DNA of 64,000 bases from an uncultured Candidatus Saccharibacteria bacterium (GTDB lineage: Bacteria; Patescibacteriota; Minisyncoccia; Phycocordibacterales; UBA918), in assembly GCA_964502345.1 (NCBI GenBank), contig CAZCWH010000001.1, positions 167-64,166 of the forward strand, given 5' to 3'. The notes beneath the pieces were generated by a model. That model was given only the letters and a program-made list of their open reading frames with translations, searched no databases and had not been told where the DNA came from. A program made the position numbers and the translations under genes. Shown piece after piece: positions 1-61,170 of the stretch. The stretch's first letter is position 1. Each line of letters begins with the position of its first letter.

Positions 1-319
1 CTTTAATAATGGTCTCATTACGTATCGCAAGATTTTCAAGCTCATCAGTTACTTTTCTGAGATGCGTATCAATCAACTGCCGTGTTTCGCCAGTGTCCCC
101 AGTGAGAGTAATTGAAGCGAGGATCTCTTTACGGGTATGCTCAATATCATTTCGGATTTTTTCCATCTCAGCCTCATCTCCTTTTCGAACTGCTTGTGCA
201 AATCTATGTAAATCTTCTTGAATTCTAAGTCTGAATCTGCGCAACTCAGTTTCAAGATTTTCTCTTTCAACACTATCAGAAATATCAATTTCATCCATGA
301 CCGCGGTTGCTGATGTCAT
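1..319 (-). CDS. hypothetical coiled-coil protein, 3' end runs off window start
   Basis: minus-strand frame is open from ATG (plus 317-319) to position 1. The product is charged and heptad-like (MTSATAVMDEIDISDSVERENLETELRRFRLRIQEDLHRFAQAVRKGDEAEMEKIRNDIEHTRKEIL...). The same frame upstream is closed by stops at 428-430, 446-448 and 476-478. No clear SD. Confidence 0.4.
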   Translation of the reverse strand, partial: MTSATAVMDEIDISDSVERENLETELRRFRLRIQEDLHRFAQAVRKGDEAEMEKIRNDIEHTRKEILASITLTGDTGETRQLIDTHLRKVTDELENLAIRNETIIK

Positions 320-475
320 ATAGATTGGAGGAACATTCGATGTGCGAGATGAAGTCCCACTTGATTGCGGTTTGGTAGTTCCTGCGATGTACGTAGTGTC
401 TTCAAGCTCTGCATGAATCTGCTGTATTTCAACAACTTTCGCAGTCTCAGCTTCTGTGTGAACCGGTACAATAGC

Positions 476-2050
476 ATTAACGATTGATGCTGGAATACGT
501 GTGCTTTCCGTCACACCATACTGGTGCTTTACTCGTGCAAATACTTTGTAATTACCATTCGGTGTTTGTTTGGTAGGCCATTTAAACTTCCACGTATCAT
601 CGTTTTGCTTTTGTGCGCGACCTAAGAATAATGGTGTGAGTGCACTTGTTGGTTGAACGTACAACTCAACAAAGGTTGCGTCAGATACAGTGACAAAAAC
701 GTCAACATCACCATCAAGCGGAGAAGGCTTAGGGATCTGAATGAGTATCTGAGGCTCCAGCGCTGCCGTGGCAGTTGTCGTAGCTGTTGAACTAGCGTTT
801 GTCGCAGGGGTCGCATTATCAATTGATGTTGTAACCTCGTTACTTTGATAGGAAGCTCCTGTAAATAGCGCCTGTGCACGAACAGTATAGGTTCCCTTTG
901 GAAAGAGCGCTGTATTCCATTCAAACCGCCATTCTGTACCGTTGTGGTACGTTGCATACCCAAGTAATGAATAATTTGAGCTGCTACCACTTTTTACATA
1001 GAGCTTAACTCCAGTTGCACCTATAACCGTGGTCTCCATGGTTACGTAGCCCTTAAGTGGCGGAGCTTCATTAATGGTGAGCTGTACGAGTGGTGCCGAT
1101 GTTGCAGTAGTAGTTGTTGTCGGAGTTGACACTGTGGTTGTAGCCGAGGGTGGAGTGCTCGTCGTTGATCCAGTGCTAGTACTTGATCCTGTTTCTGCAT
1201 CAGAAGCCATGGAGACTGGGTAATTTTCTACAAAAATATTTGATGATTCCGTATGGTTGTACGTACCATACGCGTTTTTGACAAGTGCTTTAATACGATA
1301 CTCACCATCTGTGTAGCCTCGCGTATCCCAAAAAAATCTCCAGATATCACTACTTACATTGACTGCTCTTCCGAGCGTTATGCTTGTTCCTGTAGTTTTC
1401 TGATACGCATGTACATCAACGCTTGTGGCATAGGGCACAATGATAGTAATTGGAACAATATTTGCATACGGCGAGACTCCCTCAAACAAAAAGTCGACAG
1501 GTGGTGTTGGATCAACACTAGACCCTGTCGTTCCTGAGGTACCCGCTGTTTCATTTGTTGCACAGTACACCGCATCATAATTTGGGCTTGCTGTGTCAGA
1601 GCAGTTGTAGTTTGATCCAGTAGACTGGGCTACCAGACTTGCACTCTCTAGATTTGCATAGGTTCCACCGAAACTTTGCATATGAAAAAGCGTAAATAGA
1701 GCGCCAACGACAACAAAGAACACTCCGGCATAACGCGCAACCTGAGACGCAAGCCTGTCATTATCAATAGGAAGACGAAACGGTGAAAGTAAAGCTAGTT
1801 GTAAATTATTTCGCACCACAATTGCGCTTGGGAGCGCAAACGTAGTTTGAGGGCTATCCGCTTTAACTTTCTTTGAATCACCGCCAACAGTGATTTTCGT
1901 CTTTAAATTTTTTGAGGACTTTTGATCACGATGTGTAGCCTTAGTTAAAGAAACTGTATTCTTAATCTTTTTAGAACGCACTCGTGATGAAGAATCTTTT
2001 ACCTTCAGCAAAACTGCGGGCTTCTTTAATGCAGCTCCGTTCTTTGACAT
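476..2050 (-). CDS. type II membrane protein. Basic cytoplasmic N-terminus (~110 aa), one TM helix (YAGVFFVVVGALFTLF), then three Ig-like repeats each with a W-[RK]-F-x-W motif. 524 aa.
   Basis: manual codon-by-codon translation of the minus strand from ATG at 2050 to TAA at 476-478 found no in-frame stop. It is absent from the supplied ORF track. Track ORFs 622..990, 1378..1578 and 73..294 are other frames. Confidence 0.55.
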
Positions 2051-2100
2051 GCCATCATTATACTTTGATGTCGTCAGTAATTACGTGACTGTGTCGATAA

Positions 2101-4128
2101 CTATTTTGATTTCTTGAGCGACTCAAGTGCACGGATTTCATCTCGGATAATAGCGGCTGTTTCGAAATCAAGTTGCTTAACCGCCTCCTCCATCTGTTCA
2201 CGCTTTTCGATCAGTGTTTGTTTTGGATTCTTACGGTAAAGATCAATATCTACAGCAAGCAGTGTGTCGACGGTCTGCATATGTTCAGTGCGAAGATGCT
2301 CGGTAATGTCTTTAATTTCTTTAGCGATTGTTTGCGGGGTGATATTGTGCTTTTTATTATAGGCGAGTTGTATCTCACGTCTTCGCATTGTCTCATCAAT
2401 TGCATATTTAAGTGCTGGCGTTATTTCATCTGCATAGAGCAAAACTCTACCATTAACATTGCGTGCTGCTCGTCCTATAGTTTGAATAAGTGATGTTTCA
2501 GAACGCAAAAAACCAGCCTTATCTGCATCGAGAATGGCAACGAGCTCAACTTCGGGTAAATCGAGTCCCTCGCGGAGTAAATTGACTCCAACAAGACAAT
2601 CAAAAACACCCTTTCTGAAGTCTGTAAGAATCTGTATTCGCTCGATTGTCTTAATATCACTGTGCAGATACTTTGAATTAATACCTCGCTCAGTAAGAAA
2701 TTCAGAAAGATCTTCGGCCATCTGCTTCGTGAGCGTGGTTACAAGCACACGTGTACCACTCGTAATCACTTTTACGGCTTCCTCGATAAAGTCTTTTACT
2801 TGCCCCTTGTAATTTCCTTTCTCAACAATCGGTCGAAGATCTATAATTGGATCAACAAGTCCTGTTGGGCGAATAATCTGTGAGACGATTTCACCCTGTG
2901 CATTGTCAGCATGCGCAAACTCGTACTTCCCTGGTGTTGCAGAAGTATAAATGCACTGCCCCACGCGCTCCTCAAATTCTGAAAAGTTGAGAGGCCGATT
3001 ATCAATAGCACTCGGGAGTCTAAATCCATGTTCAACGAGTGTTACTTTACGTGAACGATCGCCTGCGTACATACCACCAAGTTGAGGAATGGTCACATGT
3101 GATTCATCAATAATCGTAAGAAAATCAGGAGTACCGTCAGCCTTGTGTGGAAAGTATGAGAGGAGCGTATAGGGTGCTTCTCCTTCTTTTCTTCCATCAA
3201 AATGGCGTGAGTAATTTTCGATACCATTGCAATAGCCAATTTCACGGATAAGTGCGAGATCATGTTCCGTTCTTCGCTTAATACGTTGTGCTTCTATGAG
3301 CTTCTCTTCCTTCTTAAACTTCTTGAGTTGCAAATCAAGCTCAAGCTTAATATCTGCCATAGCTCGCTTGCGCTCATCTTCTGGGGTAACAAAGTGCTTG
3401 GCAGGAAAAAGAAAGAAGACGTCACTTTCTTCAATAATTGCTCGTGAGACGGCATCAATCTTTGTAATGTCGCTTATTTCGTTCCCTTTAAAACCTAAAC
3501 GGAAGATGACTCGCTCATTGGTTGGCATAATTTCAACAGTATTTCCAACAGCTCTAAAGTGTCCTGGGGTTAAATCAGCATTTGTTCTTTCAAAATACAT
3601 CGAGACAAGTAATCTGAGCATTTCAGCGCGTGATATAGAAAAGCCACGCGTGATTTTCTTATGTACTTTCTCATACTCGATTGGTGAACCGAGCCCGTAA
3701 ATACATGACACGGAGGCAACTATGATGACATCCTTGCGTGTGAGTAAGGCCTGAGTCGAAGCATGTCGTAAGCGGTCAATCTCTTCATTTATCATCGCTT
3801 CTTTTTCGATGTACGTATCAGAAATTGGCATGTATGCCTCAGGCTGATAATAGTCATAGTATGAAACGAAGTAGTGAACAGCATTATTTGGGAAGAAATC
3901 TCGATACTCTTGCGCGAGCTGTGCAGCAAGAGTCTTATTGTGTGCAATAACTAGTGTCGGCTTTTGGACATGTGCAATCACATTCGCTGCCGTATAAGTT
4001 TTTCCAGAGCCAGTCACACCAAGTAACGTCTGGTGACGCATACCCGCTTCGTAACCTTTTACCAGCTTTTCTATTGCCTTTGGTTGGTCACCTGCAGGTG
4101 TTTTATCAGTATTAAGCTTGAATTCCAT
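2101..4128 (-). CDS. uvrB: excinuclease ABC subunit B (UvrB)
   Basis: 675 aa with a Walker A motif (GVTGSGKT), helicase motifs, and a C-terminal UVR domain (IRDEIRALESLKK). Full-length UvrB architecture. Confidence 0.95.
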   Translation of the reverse strand: MEFKLNTDKTPAGDQPKAIEKLVKGYEAGMRHQTLLGVTGSGKTYTAANVIAHVQKPTLVIAHNKTLAAQLAQEYRDFFPNNAVHYFVSYYDYYQPEAYMPISDTYIEKEAMINEEIDRLRHASTQALLTRKDVIIVASVSCIYGLGSPIEYEKVHKKITRGFSISRAEMLRLLVSMYFERTNADLTPGHFRAVGNTVEIMPTNERVIFRLGFKGNEISDITKIDAVSRAIIEESDVFFLFPAKHFVTPEDERKRAMADIKLELDLQLKKFKKEEKLIEAQRIKRRTEHDLALIREIGYCNGIENYSRHFDGRKEGEAPYTLLSYFPHKADGTPDFLTIIDESHVTIPQLGGMYAGDRSRKVTLVEHGFRLPSAIDNRPLNFSEFEERVGQCIYTSATPGKYEFAHADNAQGEIVSQIIRPTGLVDPIIDLRPIVEKGNYKGQVKDFIEEAVKVITSGTRVLVTTLTKQMAEDLSEFLTERGINSKYLHSDIKTIERIQILTDFRKGVFDCLVGVNLLREGLDLPEVELVAILDADKAGFLRSETSLIQTIGRAARNVNGRVLLYADEITPALKYAIDETMRRREIQLAYNKKHNITPQTIAKEIKDITEHLRTEHMQTVDTLLAVDIDLYRKNPKQTLIEKREQMEEAVKQLDFETAAIIRDEIRALESLKKSK

Positions 4129-7594: not shown

Positions 7595-7999
7595 TTATAG
7601 GTAGAATGGTCCAATTTTAAGTATAAACATCGCAATCGTAGAGGTAACCCCAGCAACTATAATCGCGGTCACAAATGTAATTAGTCTATGCACAAATGTT
7701 GCTTCTAAATTTTGAGCCATTTGATACTCGTCATGAGCCCTTGTAGTACTCGTGTGTATATGGATATTGAGAAGTGACAAAACTGCACCAGATGACAGTC
7801 GCGAATCACGATACAACACCTTCGAAGCTTCACTTTCCTCATGTTCTGCCACCACGACACCTCGAAGTGCCCTAAGTGCTTCTACTATGTCACCATCAGT
7901 CCAAGAAAACTTCTTTAGCTCAAGCGTAATTTCAGCATCAGTAGCTGTGCTTGAAATACCATTAATCCTCAAATAATTTTCAACATATTCTCGAGTCAT
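7595..7999 (-). CDS. hypothetical tail-anchored membrane protein
   Basis: 134-aa ORF with a C-terminal hydrophobic helix and no recognisable domain. Confidence 0.4.
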   Translation of the reverse strand: MTREYVENYLRINGISSTATDAEITLELKKFSWTDGDIVEALRALRGVVVAEHEESEASKVLYRDSRLSSGAVLSLLNIHIHTSTTRAHDEYQMAQNLEATFVHRLITFVTAIIVAGVTSTIAMFILKIGPFYL

Positions 8000-8008
8000 A
8001 CTGGGTTG

Positions 8009-9127
8009 CTACGTCTTACGGATTTGAGTTGCATACAATTCAATGAGCACTGTGAAGAAACTGAGAATGACTGGTCCAAGTATGAAACCGATAGGGCCAA
8101 AGAGTGCTATTCCTCCAAGCACAGAAAGTAGAATAAGAAATGGGTGCAGTGAGTTTCCACGACTCATCACGTACGGCCCAATGAAATTATCGATAATTCC
8201 AACTGCAAGCACACCCCACAGTGCAACACCCCCCGCAAGAAAATGTGAGCCAGTAACTATGAGATATATAACTGCAGGTATAAAAACTATTGTTGTTCCG
8301 ATGCCAGGTATGAGTGCACCAATAGCAGCAACACTCCCCCACAAGACTGCACGTTCAAATCCAAACATGTACAAACCAATTCCAGTTAAGGTTCCTTGAA
8401 GGAGCGCGACGAGTACCGTACCCAGCGCTACTGACCTCACTGATGTAGCAAGTCGCTTTAGAATGAGTTCATCCTGCACATTCTTAAGTGGACTAATCTT
8501 AACGAGATATGTAGTAAACAATTTGCCATCACGGAAAAAGTAAAAAGAAGCAATGAGTGCAATGAAAAAGAGAAATATGGTCGAAGCAGTACCAGCAAAA
8601 AGACTTACTATGTGAGTTGCTATAAAACTTGCAACTTGCTCTACAAAACTTGCCACATCAAGTGAAAATCCAGGAATGAACTCCTGCATAAATGATTCAA
8701 TCCGTTCAAGCTGTCCCGAGAATGTGAGGTATGTATTTGAATTGAAAAGTGAATACACCGAAAGCGCCTCACGCAGAATGAATGATGCAAGAACTGAGAG
8801 AGGTAACACAACAATGAGAATGACTGAAAGTACCGCAAGGAGTGATGCAACAGTTTTGTTTCCCCGCGGAACAATACTTAAAAGTCGTTCATAGAGTGGG
8901 TAGCAAATAGTCACAATAATCGCCGCAAGTGCGAGTGCTCCACCAAACGGTGCAAACAGCTTCCACATAAGAAATGCAGAACCTACAAGAACTGCAAAGA
9001 AAAATATGTGCTCAATGAGTTTGTCACTTACCATACGATTACTCCTATTGTACATTGTTCGTGAAAAGAAAAAAGCCAAGCGGATGCCTGGCTTTTTCTC
9101 TTTATTCAAAATTCTGCTTAGAAGCAA
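8009..9127 (-). CDS. AI-2E family transporter (PerM/YhhT-like permease)
   Basis: about 8 TM helices with AI-2E-like topology and a Gly-rich C-terminal half. The true start may be the internal Met (MVSDKLIEH...). Confidence 0.65.
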   Translation of the reverse strand: MLLSRILNKEKKPGIRLAFFFSRTMYNRSNRMVSDKLIEHIFFFAVLVGSAFLMWKLFAPFGGALALAAIIVTICYPLYERLLSIVPRGNKTVASLLAVLSVILIVVLPLSVLASFILREALSVYSLFNSNTYLTFSGQLERIESFMQEFIPGFSLDVASFVEQVASFIATHIVSLFAGTASTIFLFFIALIASFYFFRDGKLFTTYLVKISPLKNVQDELILKRLATSVRSVALGTVLVALLQGTLTGIGLYMFGFERAVLWGSVAAIGALIPGIGTTIVFIPAVIYLIVTGSHFLAGGVALWGVLAVGIIDNFIGPYVMSRGNSLHPFLILLSVLGGIALFGPIGFILGPVILSFFTVLIELYATQIRKT

Positions 9128-9396
9128 TCGCAGCTGCTTCTAATGCCTCAAATGTAGCCTTTCCTGCTACATCAGCGGCTTCAAAACTCTGAGTAAAGAG
9201 GTTGGATACGTACCACAGTACGAATATGAATCCTATGGCTCGAAACATAGTAATATTTTTGCAAATGCATGCTTTCTTTGACGAGAAGAAAGCTGAAAAA
9301 ATCGACATTTGCCCGAGCTCTCAAGAACTGTACTTCTACACTCTATTACAAAAACTATTCTTGTAAAGTTTCAAGCAGTAGTATGGACGAGCTCTG

Positions 9397-9954
9397 CTAT
9401 TCTTGTGGCACTATTCCACTCACATAGTCTTTGAGTTCTTCGCTCGTGAGTGAGCCTCTTTTATGAAATACGAGATTCCCAATTTCATCATAGAAAAGCG
9501 TCTCTGGCATAGCATACCCTTCAATGGTACTAAAAAGGTGATCGTCTTGATCAATGAGGTACTCAATACCCTCTTCTCTACCAATCGTGTTTAGATATGC
9601 AAGCGCAGTTTCCTTGGTCTCCATTCGATTCATTGCGACAACCGAAATCTTATCGCCATATTCTTTTTTAATTTCACCGAGCGCTTTTAGATCACCCTGA
9701 GAAAAAGGACTCCACGAAGCCCACATGTTGATGATAAGTGGCTTACCTTGGAAGTCAGCAATATTGACCGCATTTCCGCTTAAATTAGTGTATGGCAGTG
9801 TTTCATCATGAACAATACTCACAATGTCAGCATTCCTTTTGGCAAAATATCCATTTGGTGACTTAAGCTCATAGATAACAAAGATACCAATGAGTACGAT
9901 AACACCAAGAATCGTGAGTGTTATTAAGGTTGCTTTCGCCGGATGCTTCATCAC
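9397..9954 (-). CDS. TlpA/ResA-like thioredoxin-fold protein, membrane-anchored, with CXXC replaced by SPFS (probably redox-inactive)
   Basis: N-terminal TM. The redoxin motif context INMWASW-SPFS-QGDLKALGEI occupies the place of the canonical WASWCxPC. Confidence 0.7.
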   Translation of the reverse strand: MMKHPAKATLITLTILGVIVLIGIFVIYELKSPNGYFAKRNADIVSIVHDETLPYTNLSGNAVNIADFQGKPLIINMWASWSPFSQGDLKALGEIKKEYGDKISVVAMNRMETKETALAYLNTIGREEGIEYLIDQDDHLFSTIEGYAMPETLFYDEIGNLVFHKRGSLTSEELKDYVSGIVPQE

Positions 9955-10551: not shown

Positions 10552-11904
10552 TTACTCTGACGTCGGTGATGGGATGACAGGCTGAGTCTCAAAGTTAGCT
10601 TTAACCTCATCATCAGAAAGTTTTCGTTCCCCATCACCTTCTTTGATCGTTATTTCATAATCTCGTTCTGGTTGAGACGCATCAGAAATATAGAGAACGG
10701 CCCCGACAAACCCGACAATAAGGAGTGCAACTGAAATGAAAAACATTTTATAGTGCACAATGAATGTCCAAATTGTACTGAGCACATCAAGAAATTCAGT
10801 TACTCTACTCAAGCGTCCCCGAAGATCCGCAGCACCACTACGGATCGGGGCTGATACTGCTCGATATGATACAAGCCGGGCAGGCTGCTTTTTAATTTCA
10901 AGTGTTTCCTCTCTCTCATTATTTGATTCTTCTGGGTGTACACCTGCAAGAGCAAGCATTCTGCGAATATACAATTTGATCATCCATGTCACCAATAAGA
11001 TAAATGCAATTACAATTGAAAGGGTTATGAGCGTTGCTTTTACAGGAATAACCCAGAAATACGTAACCGCATCAGTACTTTTAACCCCGTTTTCTCCATA
11101 CGCAAGTGTTACTATCGCCTTGTACCGCCCAATTTCAGTAACTGAGCCCTCTCCCTTCCAGGTAAACCTGAAGTCTCTAATACTTTTTGGTAACACGTTA
11201 CCAAAATGCGATTGGTTATTAATTGGTATGAGGCCTCGCTCAGTTCCCCACATATTGGTGATTACAATATGACCACGTGGCTGTAAATGCACATTGCCCT
11301 TATTTTCAAATCTAAGTGAGAACTCTGCTTCAGGTGTATCTACAATACTGTCGAGCACTCTAAACTCTCGAACTGAACCTAGCTCAGTAACATCTCCTTC
11401 AATACGTACAAAGAAGAGCGAAGTTATAGTTTGTGATGTGAGTAATTGAAGTTTTGCCTCAGAGTTTTTTGGTGGCTGTGTACCAACGAGTATTGCTGCG
11501 AAATGCCCACCAGGGGGTGCATCTTTTGGAATTTCGACAAAAAATGAAAGTTCTCTGCTTTGCTCGGGTGGTATGACATACGGCCCATTTGCAATCTCTA
11601 TCCACTCTGCAAGTGTGTTTCTACTTTCATCCTCGTCTTCTAGAACTGGAATAAATTTTCCTTGTCCCGATTCCCCTGAAGCTGCAAAATTTACAACTTC
11701 TGCATAAACGGTAATTTCGTATGGATTTCCATTCACAACCTTAACTGAGCTTTGCCAGATATCACCTCTTTCAACTGATAGTTGAAAGAGTGGTGGTGTC
11801 ACCGTGAGCACCTGTGCGTTTGATTGAGCATGTACTGAAAATGGTAGTGCAAGAAAAATGCTAAAGATAAAAACTATACTGTTTGTTACAACTCTTTGAC
11901 TCAT
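10552..11904 (-). CDS. DUF916/CscA-like cell-surface protein (signal peptide, beta-rich ectodomain, C-terminal TM helices)
   Basis: signal peptide, then xTVTPPLFQLSV...VKVVNGNP, which resembles the DUF916 N-terminal motif. TM near residue 290 and a second TM near 385. It overlaps the next gene by 4 nt. Confidence 0.45.
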   Translation of the reverse strand: MSQRVVTNSIVFIFSIFLALPFSVHAQSNAQVLTVTPPLFQLSVERGDIWQSSVKVVNGNPYEITVYAEVVNFAASGESGQGKFIPVLEDEDESRNTLAEWIEIANGPYVIPPEQSRELSFFVEIPKDAPPGGHFAAILVGTQPPKNSEAKLQLLTSQTITSLFFVRIEGDVTELGSVREFRVLDSIVDTPEAEFSLRFENKGNVHLQPRGHIVITNMWGTERGLIPINNQSHFGNVLPKSIRDFRFTWKGEGSVTEIGRYKAIVTLAYGENGVKSTDAVTYFWVIPVKATLITLSIVIAFILLVTWMIKLYIRRMLALAGVHPEESNNEREETLEIKKQPARLVSYRAVSAPIRSGAADLRGRLSRVTEFLDVLSTIWTFIVHYKMFFISVALLIVGFVGAVLYISDASQPERDYEITIKEGDGERKLSDDEVKANFETQPVIPSPTSE

Positions 11905-12935
11905 TGTTTTGTAAGATCTATGTCGTGATGGCGGGGGTCTGAACGAGATTCACGTATGCGAAGTGGAATCGGATCAGAATCATCCTGTATATCGTCGTCA
12001 AGATATTTTTTATGCACAAAGAAAGCAAGTACGACTACAAGAAGTGCAAGCGCTGCAAAAATACTCAGAAGCATTTTGAGCGGTATCACATAAAAAAATG
12101 AAGTGTCCTGGACAGAAGCTCGCTCAGTATTTCCATATTCAATATTGAGAAATGCTTTATATTTGCCAAAAAGTCCATCGACAGGTACCTCTACCGCAAA
12201 CTCCTTCTCCTCGCCTGCATTGATTGTCTGATTATCAGTGTTTACTGGAAGTGAAGCAACTTCAACCCCTTTGCTGTCATAGAAGATGATTTCGCCTTTG
12301 GGTGTAAGTGATTCATCTCCTGGATTTTTGATTGTGTACACTGCTGCCTGATTGCCCGCTCCCGTAATAAATCTATCAATTATAAACTTGCCTAGTTTTA
12401 GAAATTCAACCTTATTGTCTGCTATTGTTGCATTAATAATACTTCCAGGAGCATCACCACGCTTTACCTGCTCTGCTGCTTCATCTCTGTTTCTTCCATA
12501 CCCAAATCCTAAAAACGCATGGTATTCGCCAGGGACTGGACTCGGATGAACTCTGAATGTGACTTCTAAGGTTTTTGTCGCACCAATCATAAGATTAATC
12601 CCTTGCCTGCTGAACTCCATCCAGGAAGAGAGGGACGCGGAACGATCACTCTCAATTGGAGAATGATACTCTTCAATCATTCCCCCTTCATTGACAGAGA
12701 TGTTATTGATGCTCGGGTAGATGGTGACCGGAGAATCACCCGTGTTTGTAATGGTTATGATCTTAGTTACAATGTCGCGTGCTTCTAGATCTAAATCAAT
12801 GACTAGTGGAGAAACAAGGTAAGACGGAGCCGCGAAGCTGACCAAAGGAAATAGCAGTGAAAGACAAAAAAGTGTTATCGGAATCCTTGTTACCATACGC
12901 ACAGATAGTATCATACTAAAAAATTGGTACCGCAA
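11901..12935 (-). CDS. DUF916/CscA-like cell-surface protein with C-terminal TM and an acidic/basic tail
   Basis: signal peptide, beta-rich ectodomain, then TM (LLSIFAALALLVVVLAFFV) plus a charged tail. It lies immediately downstream of the 2471-aa giant gene with a 20-nt overlap. Confidence 0.45.
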   Translation of the reverse strand: MRYQFFSMILSVRMVTRIPITLFCLSLLFPLVSFAAPSYLVSPLVIDLDLEARDIVTKIITITNTGDSPVTIYPSINNISVNEGGMIEEYHSPIESDRSASLSSWMEFSRQGINLMIGATKTLEVTFRVHPSPVPGEYHAFLGFGYGRNRDEAAEQVKRGDAPGSIINATIADNKVEFLKLGKFIIDRFITGAGNQAAVYTIKNPGDESLTPKGEIIFYDSKGVEVASLPVNTDNQTINAGEEKEFAVEVPVDGLFGKYKAFLNIEYGNTERASVQDTSFFYVIPLKMLLSIFAALALLVVVLAFFVHKKYLDDDIQDDSDPIPLRIRESRSDPRHHDIDLTKQ

Positions 12936-15900
12936 TATACCTTATACTTGTGCCATATACACCAGCTGGCTGGGACTGACGGACCTTGAGTTTAAAGACG
13001 ATATCGGTTATTTCATTTGTCACGGGGACTGAACTATATGCCACCTCATCGAGAGTTGTGGTACTCATACGAGCGTACGTATCAATGGCAGAAAATCGTG
13101 CATTGCTGTTATATAGTGTGTCATCACCCGAATGGTAACCAGCACAACCAGTAGCCTCAGTGGAGCAACCTGTACTCCAATCTATTGGACTTGCATTTGT
13201 TCCTGTAATAGGTGGAATAATTGCTTCACTTCCACTCATGAAGTCATCTGTTGCTATCATAAAAATTCGATATCCTTCGGTAGCATTTGTAGTAACTCGC
13301 AACCGTTGAACTGCCTCTACATCTGAACCAATCGGAAGTATGCCAAATGGGATTGTTGTTGTACCAGAAGCAACGTCTGTCGTAATACCCTCAGTCGCAG
13401 TCGACGACGCAACGCCACCAACTGAAAATACGAGTGATGCTCCTTCAGTTACAAGTGACGGATACTGTTCACTATTGTTAGTAGACACGGGGACTCCCTG
13501 CACTACATCGTAAAGTCTAAAGTAGTACACAAGGTTTACGCGAGGACCTGCAGATTGAATGGTAAATTCGTATTCTGTAGCATCACCACCTTCATGCCGA
13601 AAACCACTCAACGCTTGAGGGGATTCATTATGCGTTCCACAACCGTTCCCAACACCCGCGACGCAACTGTCTGCATCAGAAAGTGTTCCGGTCGTTATTT
13701 CACTGTTATCGGTACCACCTCCATCTGCATAGCACCAGGTTGAAGTTGCTGTACACGTACTTGTTGCGACCACATCTGCAACAGTTTCGAAATTTGCATA
13801 CTCTGAGTACTGCAGTTTAAAACGCACATCATCACGTGATATATTTTTTACCTCTTTCACTACAACTCGGAGCTTGACCGCTTGACCATTTGCAATATCT
13901 ATTGGTGCAACATTTTCTATTGCAAGTGGTGTAACGGGTGTTTCATTATTTTCATCGTCGTACCAGCGCCAATTTTGCGTTTTGGGAGTAAAACTTGCAG
14001 TTCTAATTTTTGGATGTTGGTAATAATTTCCTAATAGTTCCCCATTTGTTTCAACCATTCGGAAACAGTAGTATGTTTCTGCATTTGCACCATTTTGTTC
14101 AACAATCCAATCATACTCAATGGTCTCATTCACCTGCACTGCATGCGCATTAGCATCAGTATCATTTTCTTCCTCAAGCGTACCAGCTACATCCGAAATG
14201 GAAGGAAGTACGAGATCGCCGAGCGTAGGAGGGTCTCCGGAAAGAAGCGTACCATCAGTTGTTCCTGTGGCATTAAAACCCCTCCAGATTGTACTTGAAG
14301 CAGCGTTCCCAAGTGTGTTCCAGTTTGCTTCACTAATTGCACTACATGTTGAGACCATTGGAGCATACTGGAGCTTAAATGCCTTAGTGCCAGCTGGCCA
14401 TGTGGCATTGAGTGCCTGAAGAGACATGCGAATACGAATCCGTTCTCCTTCACCTAGTGGTTCATCAGTAGCAGTTAAGGTTGTGTCTTCACCAAGATCT
14501 TGACCCCCGACAGGCCACGGGTCTGTTGGCTTGAGTGCATTGTTATCAACAAACAATTGATAATGGAGTTGCTCGAGTGCAAGCCCTGCAGTTGGCCATT
14601 CAACAATCTCCGCACGATACGTAAGCACTGAACCAGTATTACTGCGCCAGATTTCAAATGCAGTAGATGAAGCAATTGTTATACCTGCTATCGCTCGCGG
14701 GAAAATCGTAGTAGTGAGTGACGAACGAGCATTTGCAAATATTGATGCGTTTGTAAGGTCAGTCAGAACCTTTCCATTCGGAAGCGTGACGCTTACCGTA
14801 AGCGGAGCTGTGCCACCGGTCGTAAAACCATTTGACTGAGTGACTTCCATAGCTCCAGCTGCAGTTTGTGTATTTTCAATGATCCATGCGACTGAAGTCT
14901 GTCCAGACGGGGTTGTCGCACCAGCTTGAAGAAAGTACGACACAGAGCCAACACTAGAAAGCCACACCTCAGCACCAAATTCATCTGTTCCATTGAGTAG
15001 TCGATTATTTCTTTTCTGTGTATGTATAAACGTACGAGTTAGATTACCGAGGGCTGTAATTGCCTCAGTTTCAGTAACACCAGCTGCACTGTAGGTGTGT
15101 TCACTTCGTTGAACAACCCAATTCGGACCTTTAAATTCAACTACGGCATAACTTACCCGTACTGCATCCGTGCCGGTTGCTCCTCGCCAGAAATATGGTG
15201 TATCGTTATTTGCATCCCATGCTGAAGTACTCGGTAATGCATCATAGTTTGCCGAACCAGTATCAGGGCTTTGTTGCCCCGTAATAAATACAACTACATC
15301 ATCATCGTTTGTGATACCAGAAACTATACTGCCCGTAGCACTCGTAGAAGCTACTCCATACGCAATAAATGTTTGATCATGCACTATCATTTCATTATCG
15401 GAACCAGGCTCTCCAATAAATTCAATAATTTCCCAATCAACTCGTGTCGATGTTGCGACTCCTGTTCGTGCAATGGTCACTGAAGTCATGATATTTGAAG
15501 GGTTGAGTATATACGCTGTTGTGTTTGTTGCGTTTTGGGCTGCGGTATTCCCCGAAGCGTGACCAGCACCAGTAATACCGATATTTGTGATACGAATAAA
15601 TGCACTCGTTGAAGCGTTTGGTGTTATGTAGTGCACTCCAGCGACAAGTGTTGTTGAGGTAGCTCCCATGAGTATGGTTGCAGAGTTACGCTGGATTTCA
15701 AAATCTCGCTCAGGAGATGTGGTGAGCTCTGCATATTTTGAATACGCGTTAAGCTCAACACTCGAAGCAGCAAGCCTAAAACAATAGGTTATATCATTAC
15801 CCGCATCGACTGTTTGCTCAATACTAAACTCTGCTTCGAGGTACTCCGAACTCGTAATTGATGTAGTTGCAATGATTGATGATGTGTCCTTTATTGCACT

Positions 15901-18900
15901 GTTTGGTGAGAGGAAACTAGAGTTTTCATTTGATACCCCGCCCCCCAGTATAGAAATGTCTGTACTGTCATCACCATCCGTTAAATTAATCGAATCGTAC
16001 ATCTCCCAGGCGCCGCCAGTCGCACCCACATCAGTCCATGATGTTACAGCGCTACAGGTTGTGATTTTTGCTCCATACTCTAATCGTAATGCTCTGGCTA
16101 ATGAAGTAACAGTACCTTCGTTTGAAACTTGTAACCTCAAACGTACGGGAGTTGTCTGTGCAACATTTGAAATTGCCGTATCTTCCGCGTCACCCGAGAG
16201 CGAAGTTGCTGTTGTCTCATCTCCATTATCACTTCTCCAGTGGTAGTGGGTCTGTGTAAGGACTGCTCCTAAAAGTGTCGTTGACCCATTCATATCACGA
16301 GTAATTGAAGGACTTACTGAGCCTCCTCCAGAGACAATTAAATTTGATGATGGGCTTTCCATGATGATATCGATAGTTTCATCATTTTGTGCAGTGTCAG
16401 TCGTATCAAGTACGGTGTACAAACACATGGTCGACGTCGTCGAAATCGAGACTGACCCTGTAAATGTTGAGGTCCCATTGGGTCCTGAAAATCCATCAGT
16501 ATCTGTTGAACCAAACTGGGCTTCCCCTCCCGTATAACTATCACTTGCACAATCATAGGGAGCAGTGGTATCCAAATCATAATGAAGTTCTATATTGTCT
16601 AGATCGGTTTGTGCATCAACAGTCCCATTTTCTGAAATAGTAATGCTGGTAACATTGCGAGTGCTGACATTCTCAGTAATGACAAAAGCGCTCCCCACAT
16701 AGAAATCTGTTGCTGGTATTGTTGTCGTTGCTGTCTGACTTGTGGTTGCAATGGTCACGAGGACATCTGAAGAAATATTTGCACGCGGTATAACTGAATA
16801 CGCTGAGAGCGCTTGTCCTTGATTGGTAACTCTAAAACAGTATGTATTCCCTTCTACCGCGGTTGTTGAAGCTACTATTGAATACTCTAATTCAACAAAC
16901 TCTGATGATGACAGAGTAATTTGGCCGGTTTGAGATACAGTATCTTTTACACCACCATTTGGAGTAAGGAAGGTAGCATTTTCATCTGTCACAGCACCAT
17001 TGATTCCTGATGCTATATTTGTAGTATCTGCACCATCAGTTAAATTTAGTGTGTCGACCATATCAAAATCACCTCCTGCTGAACCAATGTCAGTCCATCC
17101 TGTTGCTGCTTCGCACGTGCTTGGATTTGGCGCATACTCCAAACGATACTGCATTGCTGGAGTTGAACTACTGCCCTCATTTGATACCTCTACACGGAGA
17201 CGTGTGGTTGATCCTTGTCGCATCGCAGTCAGTGAGGTGTCCTCAACTCCGCTCGTCTTTGAAGTGGCAGTCGTTTCATTTCCATCATCATTGCGCCAAT
17301 GATAGTGAACGAGAGTAGGAGTATCGTTATACACCAATGTTGTTCCAGAAAGATCTTGTGAAGCACTTGGCCCGGCACTACTACTCGTAACGGTCACATC
17401 GCTCGCTGGATTTGCAATAGAAATTTCAATTGTTGAACTACTGTCCGCTGAATCAAGCACGTCCATGACGGGATATACACAAAGTGCTTCAGTCGCATCT
17501 ACATTAACAGTCGAACCAGTAAACCCTGATGTACCATCTGCGCCAGAAAAACCATTACCATCCGTTGAACCAAACTGACTTTCACTTCCTCCATACGTGA
17601 CACTTGCACAATCGTATGGCGACACTGTATCGAGCTCATAAAACAACTTTACGTTAGCAATATCTGCCGAACCATCGATTGTTCCAGATTCAGTAATGGT
17701 AATTCCAGTAATATCATATGCTTGCGTTTCATCAGTATTGTAAAGACTAAACACACTACCGACATAGACATTACTCGTGCTTGCGTAGAGTGACGCAATT
17801 TGAGACCCAGTAGTTGCAATTGCAGTGCTTGGTAAATTTGCGAGTGTAGCACCATAGATATCATCGTCTGTATTATCAAACCATGTAACATACAAACGTT
17901 CACTATTGACGAATCCTACATCAACTCCATAGATATCATCTGGACTAGTATTTACTGGACCTTGTTCATATTCCCATGTAGTCATCCCATCAGTTGATCG
18001 TTTCCATAGTACATTCGCTGTGTTGGCTGTGTTTGCTGTGGCCTGTGCGCTATACGCTACATAGACGTCGTCATTGCTTGTATCCAGTGCAATGGCAACA
18101 TTTGTAAGACCAAGTACGACAGATGCACTCACATTAGTTTTTGGAGTCCACGTACCCGCGGAATAGACTGCTGTACGTAGCACGTCGTTCCCTGGTGTAG
18201 CATTATCTGCAATGTACGCGAGATATACATCTCCAGTCGTTGGACTCACAGTAACAGCCATACCTACGTCATATGTCGCATTATCGATTGCGTTTGAATC
18301 AATAGTCGTAGACGCCGCATCCCACGAGCCAGCTCCATTATTCCAAACTTTACTTTCAATATTTTCTGCAGCGGCGCCGACATCGCGATGAATTGCAATA
18401 ATGTTGCCCCCTGGAAGTGGGGCGAGTATTGCATAGTTGTTAGTGAGCCCAAAGGGGTTAGTTCCTGTTTCTGACCAACTTCCCGCAAGATTACAACTCG
18501 CAGAACATTCAACTACAAATGAATCAGATGCATCAATACTGCTTGCATAGATCGTCCCATCAGTTCCCTTCGTTATTGAAATCTGGTTGGTACCTACAGT
18601 AATCGTGCCTCCTTGAGCGTTTGTCGTACTTACCGGTGCACTACCCATAAGCAGTGTGTCGCTCGTCGTATCAAGCCGGTTGTACCAAACATCATCAGGG
18701 TTAGTATCGAGTGTCGCTATATGAATGTAATCTCCTGTATCTCCGGGCGTCCACTGGTCATACCATACTTGAATAGAGATACAGTCGACCTGAGCATCAA
18801 CCGTTGTGGTACCACTCCATGTCTGACCTCCATCAGTTGTTTTGCGGTACACACAGTATCCGGGTGCGTCAACAAAAAATTTGTACCCTGTCTGATCATC

Positions 18901-20331
18901 GGTAAAGACGGTTTGGGAGCCGGCTAACACATGTGATGTACCTGCGGTACTCACATTGCTATCTATTGTGTACTGGGTGTAGGAGTCATTACTATTGATT
19001 TCGTCAAAGGCAGTTGTGCGTACATGGATCCCTGGAAAAATATCAGCGAGAGTTTCTCCAAAAATATCATTATCTGTGTCATCAAACCACGTTGCATAAA
19101 TCCGTTCATCACTGACCAGATTTAAATTGATGCCGTACATATCATCAGCGCTCGTATTGAGTGGCCCCTGCTCATATCCCCAACTTGCCATGTCATCAGT
19201 CGACTTGCGCCAGTAAATATTTCCAGTCGCTAGTGTGAGAGGTGTTGTACGAGCACTATATGCTACGTACACATCGTCATTAGAGGCATCAAGTGCGATA
19301 GCAACATTCGTGATTCCTTTCTCACTATACCTCACAACCTCTTTTGTCGAGGTCCACGTACCACTCGAGTATCGTGCAGTGCGAATCTGATCGTCAGCTC
19401 CAAGGGTCGTATTACGTGCGATATATGCCAAATACACATCTCCTGTCGTCGGACTCACCGTAACAGCCATTCCAACATCATACGTAGTGTTATCTGTTGC
19501 ATTTGCATCTATGGTCGTCGATGCAGCGTCCCATGAGCCTGTGCCATTGTTCCAAACCTTACTCTCAATATTCTCTGCAACCGCAGCAACGTCACGATGA
19601 ATTGCTATGATGTCGCCACCTGGGAGAGGAGCGAGTATTGCATAGTTATTGGTAAGCCCAAATGGATTTGTACCGGTCTCAGACCAACTTCCTGCGACAT
19701 TACAACTTGAAGAACATTCAACAACAAATGAATCGGAGGCATCTATACTGCTTGCATAGATTGTTCCATCTGTTCCCTTCGTAATAGAAATTTGGTTTGC
19801 ACCTGCCGTAATGGTTCCACCCTGCCCCGTAGTCATACTAACTGGTGAGCTCCCCAAGAGGAGTGTATCCCCATTGGTATCAAGACGGTTATACCAAACA
19901 TCATCTGGGTTAGTATCGAGTGTAGCTATATGGATGTAAGTTCCAGTATCCCCTGGTGTCCACTGGTCGTACCAGACTTGCACTGAGATACAGTCAACCT
20001 GTGCATCGACTGTTGTTGTAGCGCTCCAGGTCTGCCCTCCATCCGTTGTTTTACGGTACACACAGTATCCTGGAGCATCAACAAAGAATTTGTATCCTGT
20101 TTGATCATCAATAAATACCGTTTGCGAACCCGACAGTATGTGCGACGTACCAACGGTACTTGCATCAGAATCAATAGTTGCCTGTGCAGCTTCAGCAGTA
20201 GGTACTATCCTCGTTAATAGTGCATCACCAAAACTGCTAAGCAAAAAAACGAGTATAAGAATAGACGCAACAGTCTTCTTCACTCGCAAGAGTTTTTTAA
20301 ATACAATACCTCCCATTGTCACCATTATCAC
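12916..20331 (-). CDS. giant secreted surface protein (2471 aa). It has two tandem BNR/Asp-box sialidase-like beta-propellers, repeated ~190-aa HYHWRxDDG...YCFR modules, and a conserved C-terminal module.
   Basis: signal peptide. Asp-box motifs TTDGGQTW and STDGMTTW occur in two ~390-aa units that are ~85% identical at the DNA level (about 17780-18980 and 19010-20180). The C-terminus ...GTSIRYIAVPIF is shared with the 378-aa protein. Confidence 0.85.
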   Translation of the reverse strand: MIMVTMGGIVFKKLLRVKKTVASILILVFLLSSFGDALLTRIVPTAEAAQATIDSDASTVGTSHILSGSQTVFIDDQTGYKFFVDAPGYCVYRKTTDGGQTWSATTTVDAQVDCISVQVWYDQWTPGDTGTYIHIATLDTNPDDVWYNRLDTNGDTLLLGSSPVSMTTGQGGTITAGANQISITKGTDGTIYASSIDASDSFVVECSSSCNVAGSWSETGTNPFGLTNNYAILAPLPGGDIIAIHRDVAAVAENIESKVWNNGTGSWDAASTTIDANATDNTTYDVGMAVTVSPTTGDVYLAYIARNTTLGADDQIRTARYSSGTWTSTKEVVRYSEKGITNVAIALDASNDDVYVAYSARTTPLTLATGNIYWRKSTDDMASWGYEQGPLNTSADDMYGINLNLVSDERIYATWFDDTDNDIFGETLADIFPGIHVRTTAFDEINSNDSYTQYTIDSNVSTAGTSHVLAGSQTVFTDDQTGYKFFVDAPGYCVYRKTTDGGQTWSGTTTVDAQVDCISIQVWYDQWTPGDTGDYIHIATLDTNPDDVWYNRLDTTSDTLLMGSAPVSTTNAQGGTITVGTNQISITKGTDGTIYASSIDASDSFVVECSASCNLAGSWSETGTNPFGLTNNYAILAPLPGGNIIAIHRDVGAAAENIESKVWNNGAGSWDAASTTIDSNAIDNATYDVGMAVTVSPTTGDVYLAYIADNATPGNDVLRTAVYSAGTWTPKTNVSASVVLGLTNVAIALDTSNDDVYVAYSAQATANTANTANVLWKRSTDGMTTWEYEQGPVNTSPDDIYGVDVGFVNSERLYVTWFDNTDDDIYGATLANLPSTAIATTGSQIASLYASTSNVYVGSVFSLYNTDETQAYDITGITITESGTIDGSADIANVKLFYELDTVSPYDCASVTYGGSESQFGSTDGNGFSGADGTSGFTGSTVNVDATEALCVYPVMDVLDSADSSSTIEISIANPASDVTVTSSSAGPSASQDLSGTTLVYNDTPTLVHYHWRNDDGNETTATSKTSGVEDTSLTAMRQGSTTRLRVEVSNEGSSSTPAMQYRLEYAPNPSTCEAATGWTDIGSAGGDFDMVDTLNLTDGADTTNIASGINGAVTDENATFLTPNGGVKDTVSQTGQITLSSSEFVELEYSIVASTTAVEGNTYCFRVTNQGQALSAYSVIPRANISSDVLVTIATTSQTATTTIPATDFYVGSAFVITENVSTRNVTSITISENGTVDAQTDLDNIELHYDLDTTAPYDCASDSYTGGEAQFGSTDTDGFSGPNGTSTFTGSVSISTTSTMCLYTVLDTTDTAQNDETIDIIMESPSSNLIVSGGGSVSPSITRDMNGSTTLLGAVLTQTHYHWRSDNGDETTATSLSGDAEDTAISNVAQTTPVRLRLQVSNEGTVTSLARALRLEYGAKITTCSAVTSWTDVGATGGAWEMYDSINLTDGDDSTDISILGGGVSNENSSFLSPNSAIKDTSSIIATTSITSSEYLEAEFSIEQTVDAGNDITYCFRLAASSVELNAYSKYAELTTSPERDFEIQRNSATILMGATSTTLVAGVHYITPNASTSAFIRITNIGITGAGHASGNTAAQNATNTTAYILNPSNIMTSVTIARTGVATSTRVDWEIIEFIGEPGSDNEMIVHDQTFIAYGVASTSATGSIVSGITNDDDVVVFITGQQSPDTGSANYDALPSTSAWDANNDTPYFWRGATGTDAVRVSYAVVEFKGPNWVVQRSEHTYSAAGVTETEAITALGNLTRTFIHTQKRNNRLLNGTDEFGAEVWLSSVGSVSYFLQAGATTPSGQTSVAWIIENTQTAAGAMEVTQSNGFTTGGTAPLTVSVTLPNGKVLTDLTNASIFANARSSLTTTIFPRAIAGITIASSTAFEIWRSNTGSVLTYRAEIVEWPTAGLALEQLHYQLFVDNNALKPTDPWPVGGQDLGEDTTLTATDEPLGEGERIRIRMSLQALNATWPAGTKAFKLQYAPMVSTCSAISEANWNTLGNAASSTIWRGFNATGTTDGTLLSGDPPTLGDLVLPSISDVAGTLEEENDTDANAHAVQVNETIEYDWIVEQNGANAETYYCFRMVETNGELLGNYYQHPKIRTASFTPKTQNWRWYDDENNETPVTPLAIENVAPIDIANGQAVKLRVVVKEVKNISRDDVRFKLQYSEYANFETVADVVATSTCTATSTWCYADGGGTDNSEITTGTLSDADSCVAGVGNGCGTHNESPQALSGFRHEGGDATEYEFTIQSAGPRVNLVYYFRLYDVVQGVPVSTNNSEQYPSLVTEGASLVFSVGGVASSTATEGITTDVASGTTTIPFGILPIGSDVEAVQRLRVTTNATEGYRIFMIATDDFMSGSEAIIPPITGTNASPIDWSTGCSTEATGCAGYHSGDDTLYNSNARFSAIDTYARMSTTTLDEVAYSSVPVTNEITDIVFKLKVRQSQPAGVYGTSIRYIAVPIF

Positions 20332-22255: not shown

Positions 22256-22993
22256 TTACTTAATAAATGAGTCAGCTAGAAGTATTGAAAAATCCTTAAG
22301 CGTCATGCGCCCGTCTCCATTAAAATCAAAAATCTTACCTTTTGTGAACCATGCTGCCATAAAGGCAGAGATGTCTTTAAGGTCCACTTCCCCATTACCG
22401 TCGAGATCAGTCACGAAGGCAACCTCAGCAGTTCCAATAAGCTCACCATCTACACCCGTTATGTAGATTCTTGTCTCGTCGTCCTCAACGTCCGCGACAT
22501 CAACAAGTGTTCCTAATCCATCTCCCGCAACAAATGTAGCGTTATCGGTGGTCACCTTAGCAATACCTGATTCGAGTGCTTTTGCATTGATTCGAGCAAT
22601 CGTATGCTCTCCAATAAAACCCTTTCTAAATGTTCCTCCCCGCATATATATGCGCCCATCCTTTGCATAGGGTTTCTCTGTCCACAGTGTAATGACTGAG
22701 GTCCCCGTATCAACACTTTCGATGCTCATCTGTGATTCTGGATACTTTATGGTTATATCAACAGCATTTACCGGTGTATGTGCTGTTGCGCGTACTTCTA
22801 TGTAAAAATTCTCACCTTCGAGTACTGAAGACGGACTTGTGTGAATTGAAATATATGAAGTATTTTCTGTGATTACAGAAGCAAGGCTTGCAAAGAGTGC
22901 CGTGAGTACAACCAGTGGAAATGCATATCGAACAGTCTTACCAGTTGTAAGCGTATATGATGGAAACATCATTTTCCAAATCTTTTCAAACAT
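22256..22993 (-). CDS. small secreted protein with an N-terminal cohesin-like domain and a C-terminal dockerin-like module
   Basis: cohesin-like segment VLEGENFYIEVRATAHTPVNAVDITIKYPESQMSIESVDTGTSVITLW. The C-terminus DLDGNGEVDLKDISAFMAAW...DFNGDGRMTLKDFSILLADSF is two Ca-binding dockerin-like repeats. Confidence 0.6.
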   Translation of the reverse strand: MFEKIWKMMFPSYTLTTGKTVRYAFPLVVLTALFASLASVITENTSYISIHTSPSSVLEGENFYIEVRATAHTPVNAVDITIKYPESQMSIESVDTGTSVITLWTEKPYAKDGRIYMRGGTFRKGFIGEHTIARINAKALESGIAKVTTDNATFVAGDGLGTLVDVADVEDDETRIYITGVDGELIGTAEVAFVTDLDGNGEVDLKDISAFMAAWFTKGKIFDFNGDGRMTLKDFSILLADSFIK

Positions 22994-22995
22994 AG

Positions 22996-23655
22996 TTACG
23001 TGCCAAGTTCAGCTCGTAAGTTATCAATCTGCTTATCAATAACGTTCAGTGTTTCTGATATGTTTTGTGCAGTACTTGCAAGCCCTTGCACGTTTTTACT
23101 TGATGTTTGCTCACCTTTTATAAGTGCGGTGATAATATCACCTTGTATAGTGGTAAGTTCTGTAAGATATGCACTTCGGTCTTTCTCAAGATCGATAATC
23201 TTCCCCCAGGTATCGAGATTATTGAACGAAACAGTTTTTGGGCTAATAACTTTAAGTAACGCAATACTTTCCTCTAATGATGCATACTCACGTTCGAGAC
23301 GCGACACCATGAGTGCCTTTCTTTCTGCATAGAAACTCCCGCAGCTTTCAAATAATTGTTGAACGATTATGAGATCCTTGTTTGTAAGTGACTCTAGGCG
23401 ACCCAAAAGGAGGTCAAATTCATTTCGTCTTGGACAGTCTTGAATAATTGCCCCAACGACACCATCTGCGCCATTCCAGTCTGTTGTATCAGCAAGTCCA
23501 ACCATGAGCTCGACTTGTGCATCAATGTTTTCTTGAATTTTTTGCACCACTTCTTCTTTTTGGTAATGTGCGACCCACGCACCGGCAGTAATTGCTCCTG
23601 CAATGATACAGAGGTGGATACTTATGAGTAAGTGCGAATTCAGAAAGGATTTCAT
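22996..23655 (-). CDS. hypothetical membrane-anchored coiled-coil protein
   Basis: 219 aa with an N-terminal TM. The remainder is predicted helical/coiled. Confidence 0.5.
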   Translation of the reverse strand: MKSFLNSHLLISIHLCIIAGAITAGAWVAHYQKEEVVQKIQENIDAQVELMVGLADTTDWNGADGVVGAIIQDCPRRNEFDLLLGRLESLTNKDLIIVQQLFESCGSFYAERKALMVSRLEREYASLEESIALLKVISPKTVSFNNLDTWGKIIDLEKDRSAYLTELTTIQGDIITALIKGEQTSSKNVQGLASTAQNISETLNVIDKQIDNLRAELGT

Positions 23656-23659
23656 GCTT

Positions 23660-60379: not shown

Positions 60380-60840
60380 CACTGCTCCTTTGTACGTGCT
60401 CGACTTATCTTTAAACGAACCTTCTCCTTTTCTTCAGGTCGCAGAAGAGGAAGGATAAGGACCAGTACTCCATTCTTAATCTTTGCCTCTGCACCCTCAA
60501 TATCAACACTTTCTGGTAAGATGATTCGTCTATAAAAATCGCCCCAGACGCATTCTTCAGTAAAGAAAGCACCTTCAGGCTTTTTCTTTGGGAATGCCAA
60601 ATGTTCTGGGCGCAACCGCTTACCCTCAATAAGCACAACATCGGCATCACCCTCAATAGACACATGAATATCGGTGAGCTCAGCCCCGGCAGCTTGTGCA
60701 TATACGGTAATAAGATCAGTCGTCTGAAATACATCGACATCGAGTTGCACAATCTTATCAAGTGCCGTTTCTTCTTCGCTCGATTGCAGACGTTGTTCAG
60801 TTCGAATACCTCTTCCCTTGAGTCTTTGCAAAAAGGACAT
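60379..60840 (-). CDS. Hsp20/alpha-crystallin family small heat-shock protein
   Basis: 153 aa with an alpha-crystallin domain (LDVDVFQTTDLITVYAQAAGAE...IEGKRL...GDFYRRIILPESVDIEGAEAKIKNGVLVLILP). Its stop TGA overlaps the ATG of the downstream cohesin gene as TGATG. Confidence 0.85.
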   Translation of the reverse strand: MSFLQRLKGRGIRTEQRLQSSEEETALDKIVQLDVDVFQTTDLITVYAQAAGAELTDIHVSIEGDADVVLIEGKRLRPEHLAFPKKKPEGAFFTEECVWGDFYRRIILPESVDIEGAEAKIKNGVLVLILPLLRPEEKEKVRLKISRARTKEQ

Positions 60841-61030
60841 ACGATATCATTCTACTTGAAATGTTCAAAATATTACTGCGACTTATACACAAATGTTGCT
60901 TTAAGAAGATATCAGAAAAATGCTGACAGAAATTACTATCGCTGCAACTCCGAGGGGCGGTACACCTTTCGCAGAGATTGGCCCAGGCCACTCTCTCTGC
61001 CTACTGCATTCACCTTGTGTTCAAGGTCCT

Positions 61031-61053
61031 AAAAAAGCACCCCGTGCTTTTTT
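61031..61053. terminator. bidirectional intrinsic terminator AAAAAAGCAC-ccc-GTGCTTTTTT
   Basis: perfect 10-nt complementary arms with a GC core, flanked by an A-run and a T-run. A degenerate copy sits at ~28321-28345. Confidence 0.55.
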
Positions 61054-61084: not shown

Positions 61085-61170
61085 ATTAAATGAAGAAATG
61101 AAAGTAATGAATATTCTGAATTTATGTCCCGATTTTCCCCTTTCAAGGGAAAATCGCTGGACCACGCCAA

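Follow-up and report, generated by a model that had tools for sequence, protein, structure and literature searches.

One partial gene at the left edge of the window

The window analysed here, a 64,000-nucleotide stretch of a contig from an uncultured Candidatus Saccharibacteria bacterium, opens inside a long reading frame on the minus strand, which starts with an ATG at 2050..2048 and runs without interruption to base 2, followed upstream by uvrB (Table 1). The original prediction had placed the start of a long minus-strand ORF at this ATG, correctly so: it is the earliest start codon past an in-frame stop at 2083..2081. Translation of the 683 codons between 2050 and base 2 gave no in-frame stop, and the chance of an open frame of this length, estimated from composition, is about 1e-18.

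Table 1. Features of the Ig-repeat gene and its upstream neighbour in the window. Residues are those of the window protein; positions are those of the window.
Feature	Residues	Position	Strand	Evidence and remarks
Single partial CDS	1-683	2..2050	-	683 codons, starting at ATG 2050; frame still open at the left edge, 3' end missing
Basic cytoplasmic tail, predicted disordered	1-103	1742..2050	-	22 K/R vs 6 D/E; pLDDT <50
TM helix 1 (signal anchor), VARYAGVFFVVVGALFTLFHM	104-124	1679..1741	-	hydropathy, AF2 model, conserved pattern
Ig-like repeat 1	183-278	1217..1504	-	repeat alignment; AF2 strands 186-274, pLDDT ~80; repeat HMM 183-276
Ser/Thr-rich linker	279-319	1094..1216	-	63% S+T; pLDDT ~30
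Ig-like repeat 2	320-412	815..1093	-	repeat alignment; AF2; repeat HMM 320-412
Ig-like repeat 3	431-525	476..760	-	repeat alignment; AF2; repeat HMM 433-525
Charged helical region, cut by the edge	586-683	2..295	-	AF2 helices 593-623, 626-646, 655-682; pLDDT 77-89
Out-of-frame TAA		477..479	-	supposed stop of the original prediction; in-frame codon 478..476 is AAT (Asn525)
Internal ATG (Met578)	578	317..319	-	supposed second start; 319 and 2050 both 1 mod 3
uvrB		2101..4128	-	immediately upstream of the Ig-repeat gene; Pfam UvrB, UvrB_inter, Helicase_C, UVR; synteny

The same prediction had divided the region into two genes, a 524-aa type II membrane protein with Ig-like repeats that ended at a TAA at 476-478 and a coiled-coil protein from a separate ORF at 1..319, and had raised the question of whether these were one gene broken by a frameshift. 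The DNA does contain both signals on which the division was built, a TAA (479..477) and, further left, an ATG (319..317), but the TAA is one base out of frame (the local codons read ...ATC GTT AAT GCT ATT...), the length of 524 aa being the product of this one-base slip, and the ATG is an internal methionine codon of the long frame; no stop separates the two supposed genes. The in-frame stop between 479 and 2047 of the minus strand, which had been named as a sign against the long ORF, is absent. Homology gave the same picture. Three homologues of 899-945 aa matched the window protein with E values from 8e-93 to 6e-150 and identities of 33-43%, the best of them (P0001) with 99% query coverage; each is a single protein that matches the query over its entire available length, and around the supposed gene boundary (residues 520-590) their alignment with the window protein is colinear and unbroken. 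Since the frame contains no stop and the homologues align through the boundary, one gene accounts for the region and a frameshift is unnecessary, and a division into two genes is hardly credible. The homologues run about 237 residues past the window edge, and by this comparison some 237 codons of the gene would be missing beyond it.

We considered whether the long frame might instead reflect misassembly or a pseudogene in decay, with the short alternate-frame ORFs as the true genes. What speaks for this is the gene's absence from the ORF list and nothing else, and the gene is absent because the list excludes ORFs that run off either end of the window. The ORFs that are listed in the region are 40-122 aa long, in alternate frames and nested within the long ORF, which is itself uninterrupted over a length with the very low chance expectation given above, has homology across 99% of its length, and keeps all three repeats and the conserved motifs intact. 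We therefore regard this explanation as extremely improbable, and it and the two-gene reading remain very unlikely even when taken together. The frameshift, pseudogene and alternate-frame-gene models were all rejected; the sole reading consistent with the data is a single gene that the window truncates. That a protein-coding gene was missing from the list is borne out by the 683-codon frame and by homology, while the "two missing genes" were mostly an artefact, made by the dropping of edge ORFs and by a one-base frame slip that created a false stop. The practical lesson is that ORF lists should keep edge-truncated ORFs.

The window protein and its family in Candidatus Saccharibacteria

The available part of the protein begins with the basic N-terminus of the original prediction (there about 110 aa), which ends in a juxtamembrane motif conserved in the family, LSPFR(F/L)P (residues 88-94). 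Over residues 83-103 the window protein shares 86-90% identity with P0001 and P0002 and 52% with P0003, as opposed to 19-25% over the remainder of the tail. In the window protein LSPFRLP, then VARYAGVFFVVVG, represents this motif and the AR..G pattern of the first transmembrane helix (TM1), whose conserved pattern is AR..G...F...G. One transmembrane helix had been predicted for this part of the protein, and hydropathy indeed gave a single strong hydrophobic segment (about 104-124), with a Kyte-Doolittle maximum of 1.99 at residues 104-122 and a helix at 97-122 in the AlphaFold2 (AF2) model.

The three Ig-like repeats with W[RK]F.W and G.Y.[VI].A motifs were likewise recovered, at the positions given in Table 1. 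They are 24-32% identical among themselves and share the motif LG.A...W[RK]F.W.T...G.Y.[VI].A; the third is the best conserved, with 43-57% identity to relatives. Each repeat is all-beta in AlphaFold2 (pLDDT 70-87 in the window protein, 82-96 in the P0001 model), and the predicted fold is a beta-sandwich whose fold matches are tandem Ig/FN3 arrays. Ser/Thr-rich linkers (50-63% S+T) join the domains. Pfam gave nothing above cut-off in the window protein, the best match being a sub-threshold one to Big_3_3 (16.8 bits vs 27), in the region of repeat 2 (373-429); no curated NCBIfam family reached its cut-off, and a PDB sequence search with the window protein returned nothing meaningful. The distal part, which had been described as a coiled coil, is predicted to form three helices of 21-31 residues each, and the same helices appear in the P0001 model; its helical character thus stands, and the coiled coil is no more than a possibility, the best heptad score being reached by 47 of 300 shuffles.

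The extent of the family became visible only at the profile level. Word-indexed searches, with the single protein and with a 40-sequence alignment, yielded just three full-length relatives, a shortfall probably due to the low-complexity Ser/Thr stretches, and were so sparse that an exhaustive profile search was needed to reveal the family. A four-sequence profile run against 1.84 billion representative proteins retrieved 1540 representative clusters at E<=1e-30; among the best 150 of these 1540, nearly all are about 850-1000 aa long and most span the profile almost end to end. The one named relative comes from an uncultured Candidatus Saccharibacteria bacterium. These searches show that the window gene belongs to a large family of predicted envelope proteins of about 900 aa in Candidatus Saccharibacteria.

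Pfam matches in relatives, AF2 models and fold matches together define the order of parts in the family: a basic tail with LSPFRFP, TM1, three Ig-like domains with Ser/Thr-rich linkers, a helical region, Ca-binding TSP3 repeats, a Big_13 Ig domain, a second transmembrane helix (TM2) and a short basic tail. In relatives, Big_13 (PF19077) scores 48-50 bits (cut-off 27) and TSP3_bac (PF18884) 25-35 bits (cut-off 25); Big_7 reaches 28.3 bits in P0003 only. Exactly three repeats, with the family motif W.(F/Y).W.T...G.Y, are found in 38 of the 39 members of about 900 aa in the family alignment, and likewise in the window protein. When 40 members are compared, LSPFRFP, TM1 and the entire C-terminal module stand out as conserved, and the cytoplasmic tail, the linkers and Ig1-Ig2 vary. 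In the window copy, the C-terminal module and the kinase described below would lie beyond the left edge, as extrapolated from relatives.

All 39 full-length members end in a transmembrane helix (hydropathy up to 3.4) and a basic tail, and most of them have the N-terminal helix as well. This bears on the type II topology first proposed: the N-terminal anchor and its basic tail are upheld, and the single-pass arrangement is probably wrong. From hydropathy and the positive-inside rule, extended to the window copy from its relatives, the family protein is most likely anchored in the membrane at both ends, N-in/C-in, with about 750 residues outside the cell.

Members are annotated at source as "hypothetical protein", and a search with the C-terminal module gave mostly short fragments. 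Neither Pfam nor NCBIfam has a family-level model, and our full-text literature searches found no description of the protein or its kinase pair in Saccharibacteria; for this family of surface proteins, very large as it is, we thus found neither a curated model nor a published account. In Southlakia epibionticum, a cultivated oral model strain, the Tn-seq study makes no mention of the protein, the annotation tables contain no PF18884 or PF19077 entry, and the neighbours of uvrB and uvrA differ from those at the family loci; the family may be absent from tractable oral strains. One Southlakia protein, SEML1_0315 (927 aa, essential, three E-set domains), bears a superficial likeness and was considered as a possible orthologue, but was left out of the family, as the tables of that genome contain neither PF18884 nor PF19077 and the gene order differs.

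Gene neighbourhood and the adjacent histidine kinase

The gap between uvrB and the Ig-repeat gene is 50 nt and contains no terminator-like site, and the two genes are likely co-transcribed; a promoter and terminator scan found nothing above chance. Read from the far end, the window carries two unannotated ORFs, a 159-aa ORF, and genes for a redoxin, an AI-2E transporter, PGA_cap, FKBP and TGT, followed by uvrB and the Ig-repeat gene, and this order is identical in another Saccharibacteria contig (L001), which continues beyond the family gene with a histidine kinase, uvrA, a small ORF and uvrC.

We collected 31 loci from metagenomes, using family peptide patterns and confirming each with the window protein, a retrieval that was blind to the kinase and to all other neighbours; four more came from exact look-ups. 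Thirty-two non-redundant loci have DNA past the 3' end of the family gene, and three further loci end at the gene. A HisKA/HATPase_c kinase orthologue lies directly downstream, on the same strand, at every one of the 32 informative loci, and at 17 of them its start overlaps the stop of the family gene by 4 nt. This count includes one locus (L030) where the family gene is split and a 418-nt gap precedes the kinase. The pairing also holds at a locus (L007) where the family protein is 24% identical and transketolase replaces uvrB upstream, and a 375-aa relative that consists of the C-terminal module alone adjoins a kinase too. The upstream neighbour is uvrB in about 15 loci, and in closer relatives the pair of family gene and kinase is flanked by uvrB and uvrA. 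Six loci besides L001 have an ORF of about 880 aa behind the kinase, its identity as uvrA being established in L001 only. The kinase has two transmembrane helices around a loop of about 145 aa, and its matches in NCBIfam are to generic kinase cores only. No response regulator was found adjacent to the pair at the loci examined.

The neighbours differ widely in how fast they change. Compared locus by locus, UvrB shares 76-89% identity with the window UvrB and the kinase 44-81% with that of L001, whereas the family protein shares 24-41% with the window copy; the family gene thus changes much more quickly than the genes beside it, chiefly in the part encoding the distal ectodomain.

A possible partnership with the kinase, and comparison with known systems

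Gene order and conservation together suggest that the protein is a doubly anchored envelope protein in functional partnership with the adjacent kinase, a reading that we put slightly above even odds (about 0.55). With both its ends anchored in the membrane and some 750 residues in the extracellular space, the protein would be made together with the kinase and act together with it, as its auxiliary, outward-facing partner. The fast-evolving Ig stalk could then meet a variable external target, for example a host or a cell surface, and the conserved parts (TM1 with its juxtamembrane motif, and the base formed by TSP3, Big_13 and TM2) would lie beside the sensor loop of the kinase, where they might contact and modulate it. 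Adjacency and translational coupling show co-expression of the two genes, not contact between their products; the lack of an adjacent response regulator also speaks against the partnership, and neither a PDB sequence search nor the listed top fold matches gave any sequence or fold likeness to known kinase-accessory proteins.

The protein could also be purely structural or adhesive, serving, for example, as a stalk or spacer, as an adhesin for the host or as a tether to the wall, with a kinase that only shares its transcript or regulates it. Such a role would fit the fast divergence, which is typical of exposed surface proteins, the many other surface proteins encoded in the window (cohesin, dockerin, giant ORFs) and the weak, local NCBIfam matches to CglD and MtsD, two proteins of cell cohesion. 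On the other hand, the adjacency at 32 of 32 loci, with its frequent 4-nt overlap, persists across deep divergence and changing neighbours, which exceeds expectation for unrelated genes, and conservation peaks in the membrane-embedded and membrane-proximal parts rather than at the distal tip. We hold a structural or adhesive role to be a real possibility, though short of probable.

A stronger form of the partnership with the kinase can be proposed, in which the family would be the outward arm of a two-component system, found in Saccharibacteria only, that senses contact or hosts, and would represent a hitherto undescribed kinase co-receptor architecture. The protein would form a loop pinned to the membrane, whose diversifying Ig stalk would recognise a host or cell surface and whose membrane-proximal module and transmembrane helices would pass this event to the translationally coupled histidine kinase. 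We offer this as a speculative and, on present evidence, rather unlikely extension. Few molecular leads have so far been available on how epibiotic Saccharibacteria sense their environment or host, and kinase coupling together with fast divergence makes the family a concrete candidate for such sensing; that it is invariably coupled to a sensor kinase is a lead of modest interest, and one that can be tested.

Among known systems, the Ca2+-stabilised extender regions of giant bacterial adhesins (SiiE, 2yn3; a large adhesion protein, 6xi3; MpIBP, 5irb) resemble the family in their tandem Ig-like beta-sandwich domains and in Ca-binding motifs, which in the family occur in relatives. Identity to the family is only 10-14%, and unlike the giant adhesins the family has three repeats, in fixed number, and its relatives end in transmembrane helices, being predicted to be anchored rather than secreted and having no C-terminal secretion signal. 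Proteins with Big_13 and TSP3_bac domains share these domains with the relatives, in a part of the protein that lies beyond the edge of the window. A likeness to the cohesin proteins further right had also been put forward. The cohesin and dockerin proteins of the window, detected with Pfam at 22256-25405, 28538-29662 and 58850-63042, are, like the family, secreted or anchored beta-sandwich surface proteins, here of the same genome, and one cohesin protein (23660-25405) has a Big_13 domain, of the type found in the C-terminal module of the relatives. The resemblance is generic only: Pfam gave no cohesin match either for the window protein (E<=1) or for the relatives (E<=0.1), dockerin is likewise unmatched in both, and the TSP3 repeats of the relatives belong to a different family of Ca-binding repeats.

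The closest parallel in organisation may lie with the membrane-anchored accessory proteins that are encoded beside sensor kinases, YycH/YycI with WalK in Bacillus and LpqB with MtrB in Actinobacteria. Like these, the family protein is predicted to be extracytoplasmic and membrane-tethered, and its gene is kept across the lineage beside a HisKA-type kinase with two transmembrane helices. In contrast, the family gene lies upstream of its kinase and theirs downstream, the family operon is missing a response regulator, and the family protein has two predicted anchors where they have one, with an ectodomain built of Ig-like, TSP3 and Big_13 modules. The resemblance would thus be one of logic only; by analogy with these systems, the conserved transmembrane and juxtamembrane segments of the family offer a plausible surface for contact with the kinase.

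Cohesin, dockerin and sparsely annotated genes of the window

Five predicted minus-strand genes in the window encode cohesin- or dockerin-domain proteins (Table); as a set, their domain content suggests a surface assembly of the cohesin-dockerin type in this Saccharibacteria genome. The ORFs of 7248 and 2471 aa are essentially unannotated. The 450-aa ORF scored 23.5 bits against the WxL-interacting-protein peptidoglycan-binding domain (cut-off 27.3), and its counterpart in L001, the locus with the same gene order as the window, shares 66% identity with it.

Table. Positions of the features described in the window, in related loci (L) and in homologous proteins (P).
Feature	Location	Strand	Basis or content
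Giant ORF, 7248 aa	window 37020-58766	-	only DUF2341 and Ig_Rha78A_N matches
ORF, 2471 aa	window 12916-20331	-	only a weak BNR_2 match
ORF, 450 aa	window 10552-11904	-	sub-threshold WxL-interacting-protein peptidoglycan-binding domain match
Cohesin-domain protein	window 22256-22993	-	domain matches
Cohesin-domain protein with Big_13	window 23660-25405	-	domain matches
Cohesin-domain protein	window 58850-60382	-	domain matches
Dockerin-domain protein with Big_6, DUF4215, Big_13	window 28538-29662	-	domain matches
Dockerin-domain protein with Big_6	window 61171-63042	-	domain matches
Surface-protein/kinase pair flanked by uvrB and ~880-aa ORF	L001 7908-18753; L013, L015, L019, L022, L031, L032		
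P0188, 375-aa relative next to kinase	L005 6316-9128		
~675-aa distant family relatives	L023-L027, L029, L037		
YNC.D..SPNY...YC stretch with C150, C163	residues 150-163, window 1562-1603	-	
(E/x)P(S/T/A)(L/F), TM helix, basic tail	C-termini of family members, e.g. P0001 residues 870-920		alignment A3

Genomic setting and variants of the surface-protein/kinase pair

In many Saccharibacteria, uvrB is followed by the surface-protein and kinase pair and then by an ORF of ~880 aa, which was identified as uvrA in L001 only; uvrC also lies near the pair in L001. The rationale for placing a putative membrane-sensing pair within a nucleotide-excision-repair cluster is not obvious. The window uvrB is intact (675 aa), and that of L001, the closest relative, was called as two ORFs (7908-8183, 91 aa; 8211-9950, 579 aa), which suggests that a frameshift or stop codon interrupts it or that the assembly is wrong at this point.

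P0188 consists of the TSP3, Big_13 and TM module only and directly follows a HisKA_7TM-type kinase gene; the link between module and kinase therefore recurs with another kinase type and gene order. The ~675-aa relatives also carry the kinase gene downstream, and since the family repeat HMM detects only one repeat in them, the number of stalk domains may vary among lineages.

Sequence features of the family proteins

The window protein has just two cysteines, C150 and C163, which may pair as a disulfide and so close a loop lying between TM1 and the Ig1 repeat. The stretch containing them is common to this protein and its full-length homologues P0001 and P0002, and is absent from a third, P0003.

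At the other end of the family proteins, the C-terminal TM helix with its basic tail is preceded, at a distance of ~5-8 residues, by an (E/x)P(S/T/A)(L/F) motif of moderate conservation. Although this motif matched none of the known sortase or exosortase motifs, the layout of motif, TM helix and basic tail is reminiscent of tripartite sorting signals.
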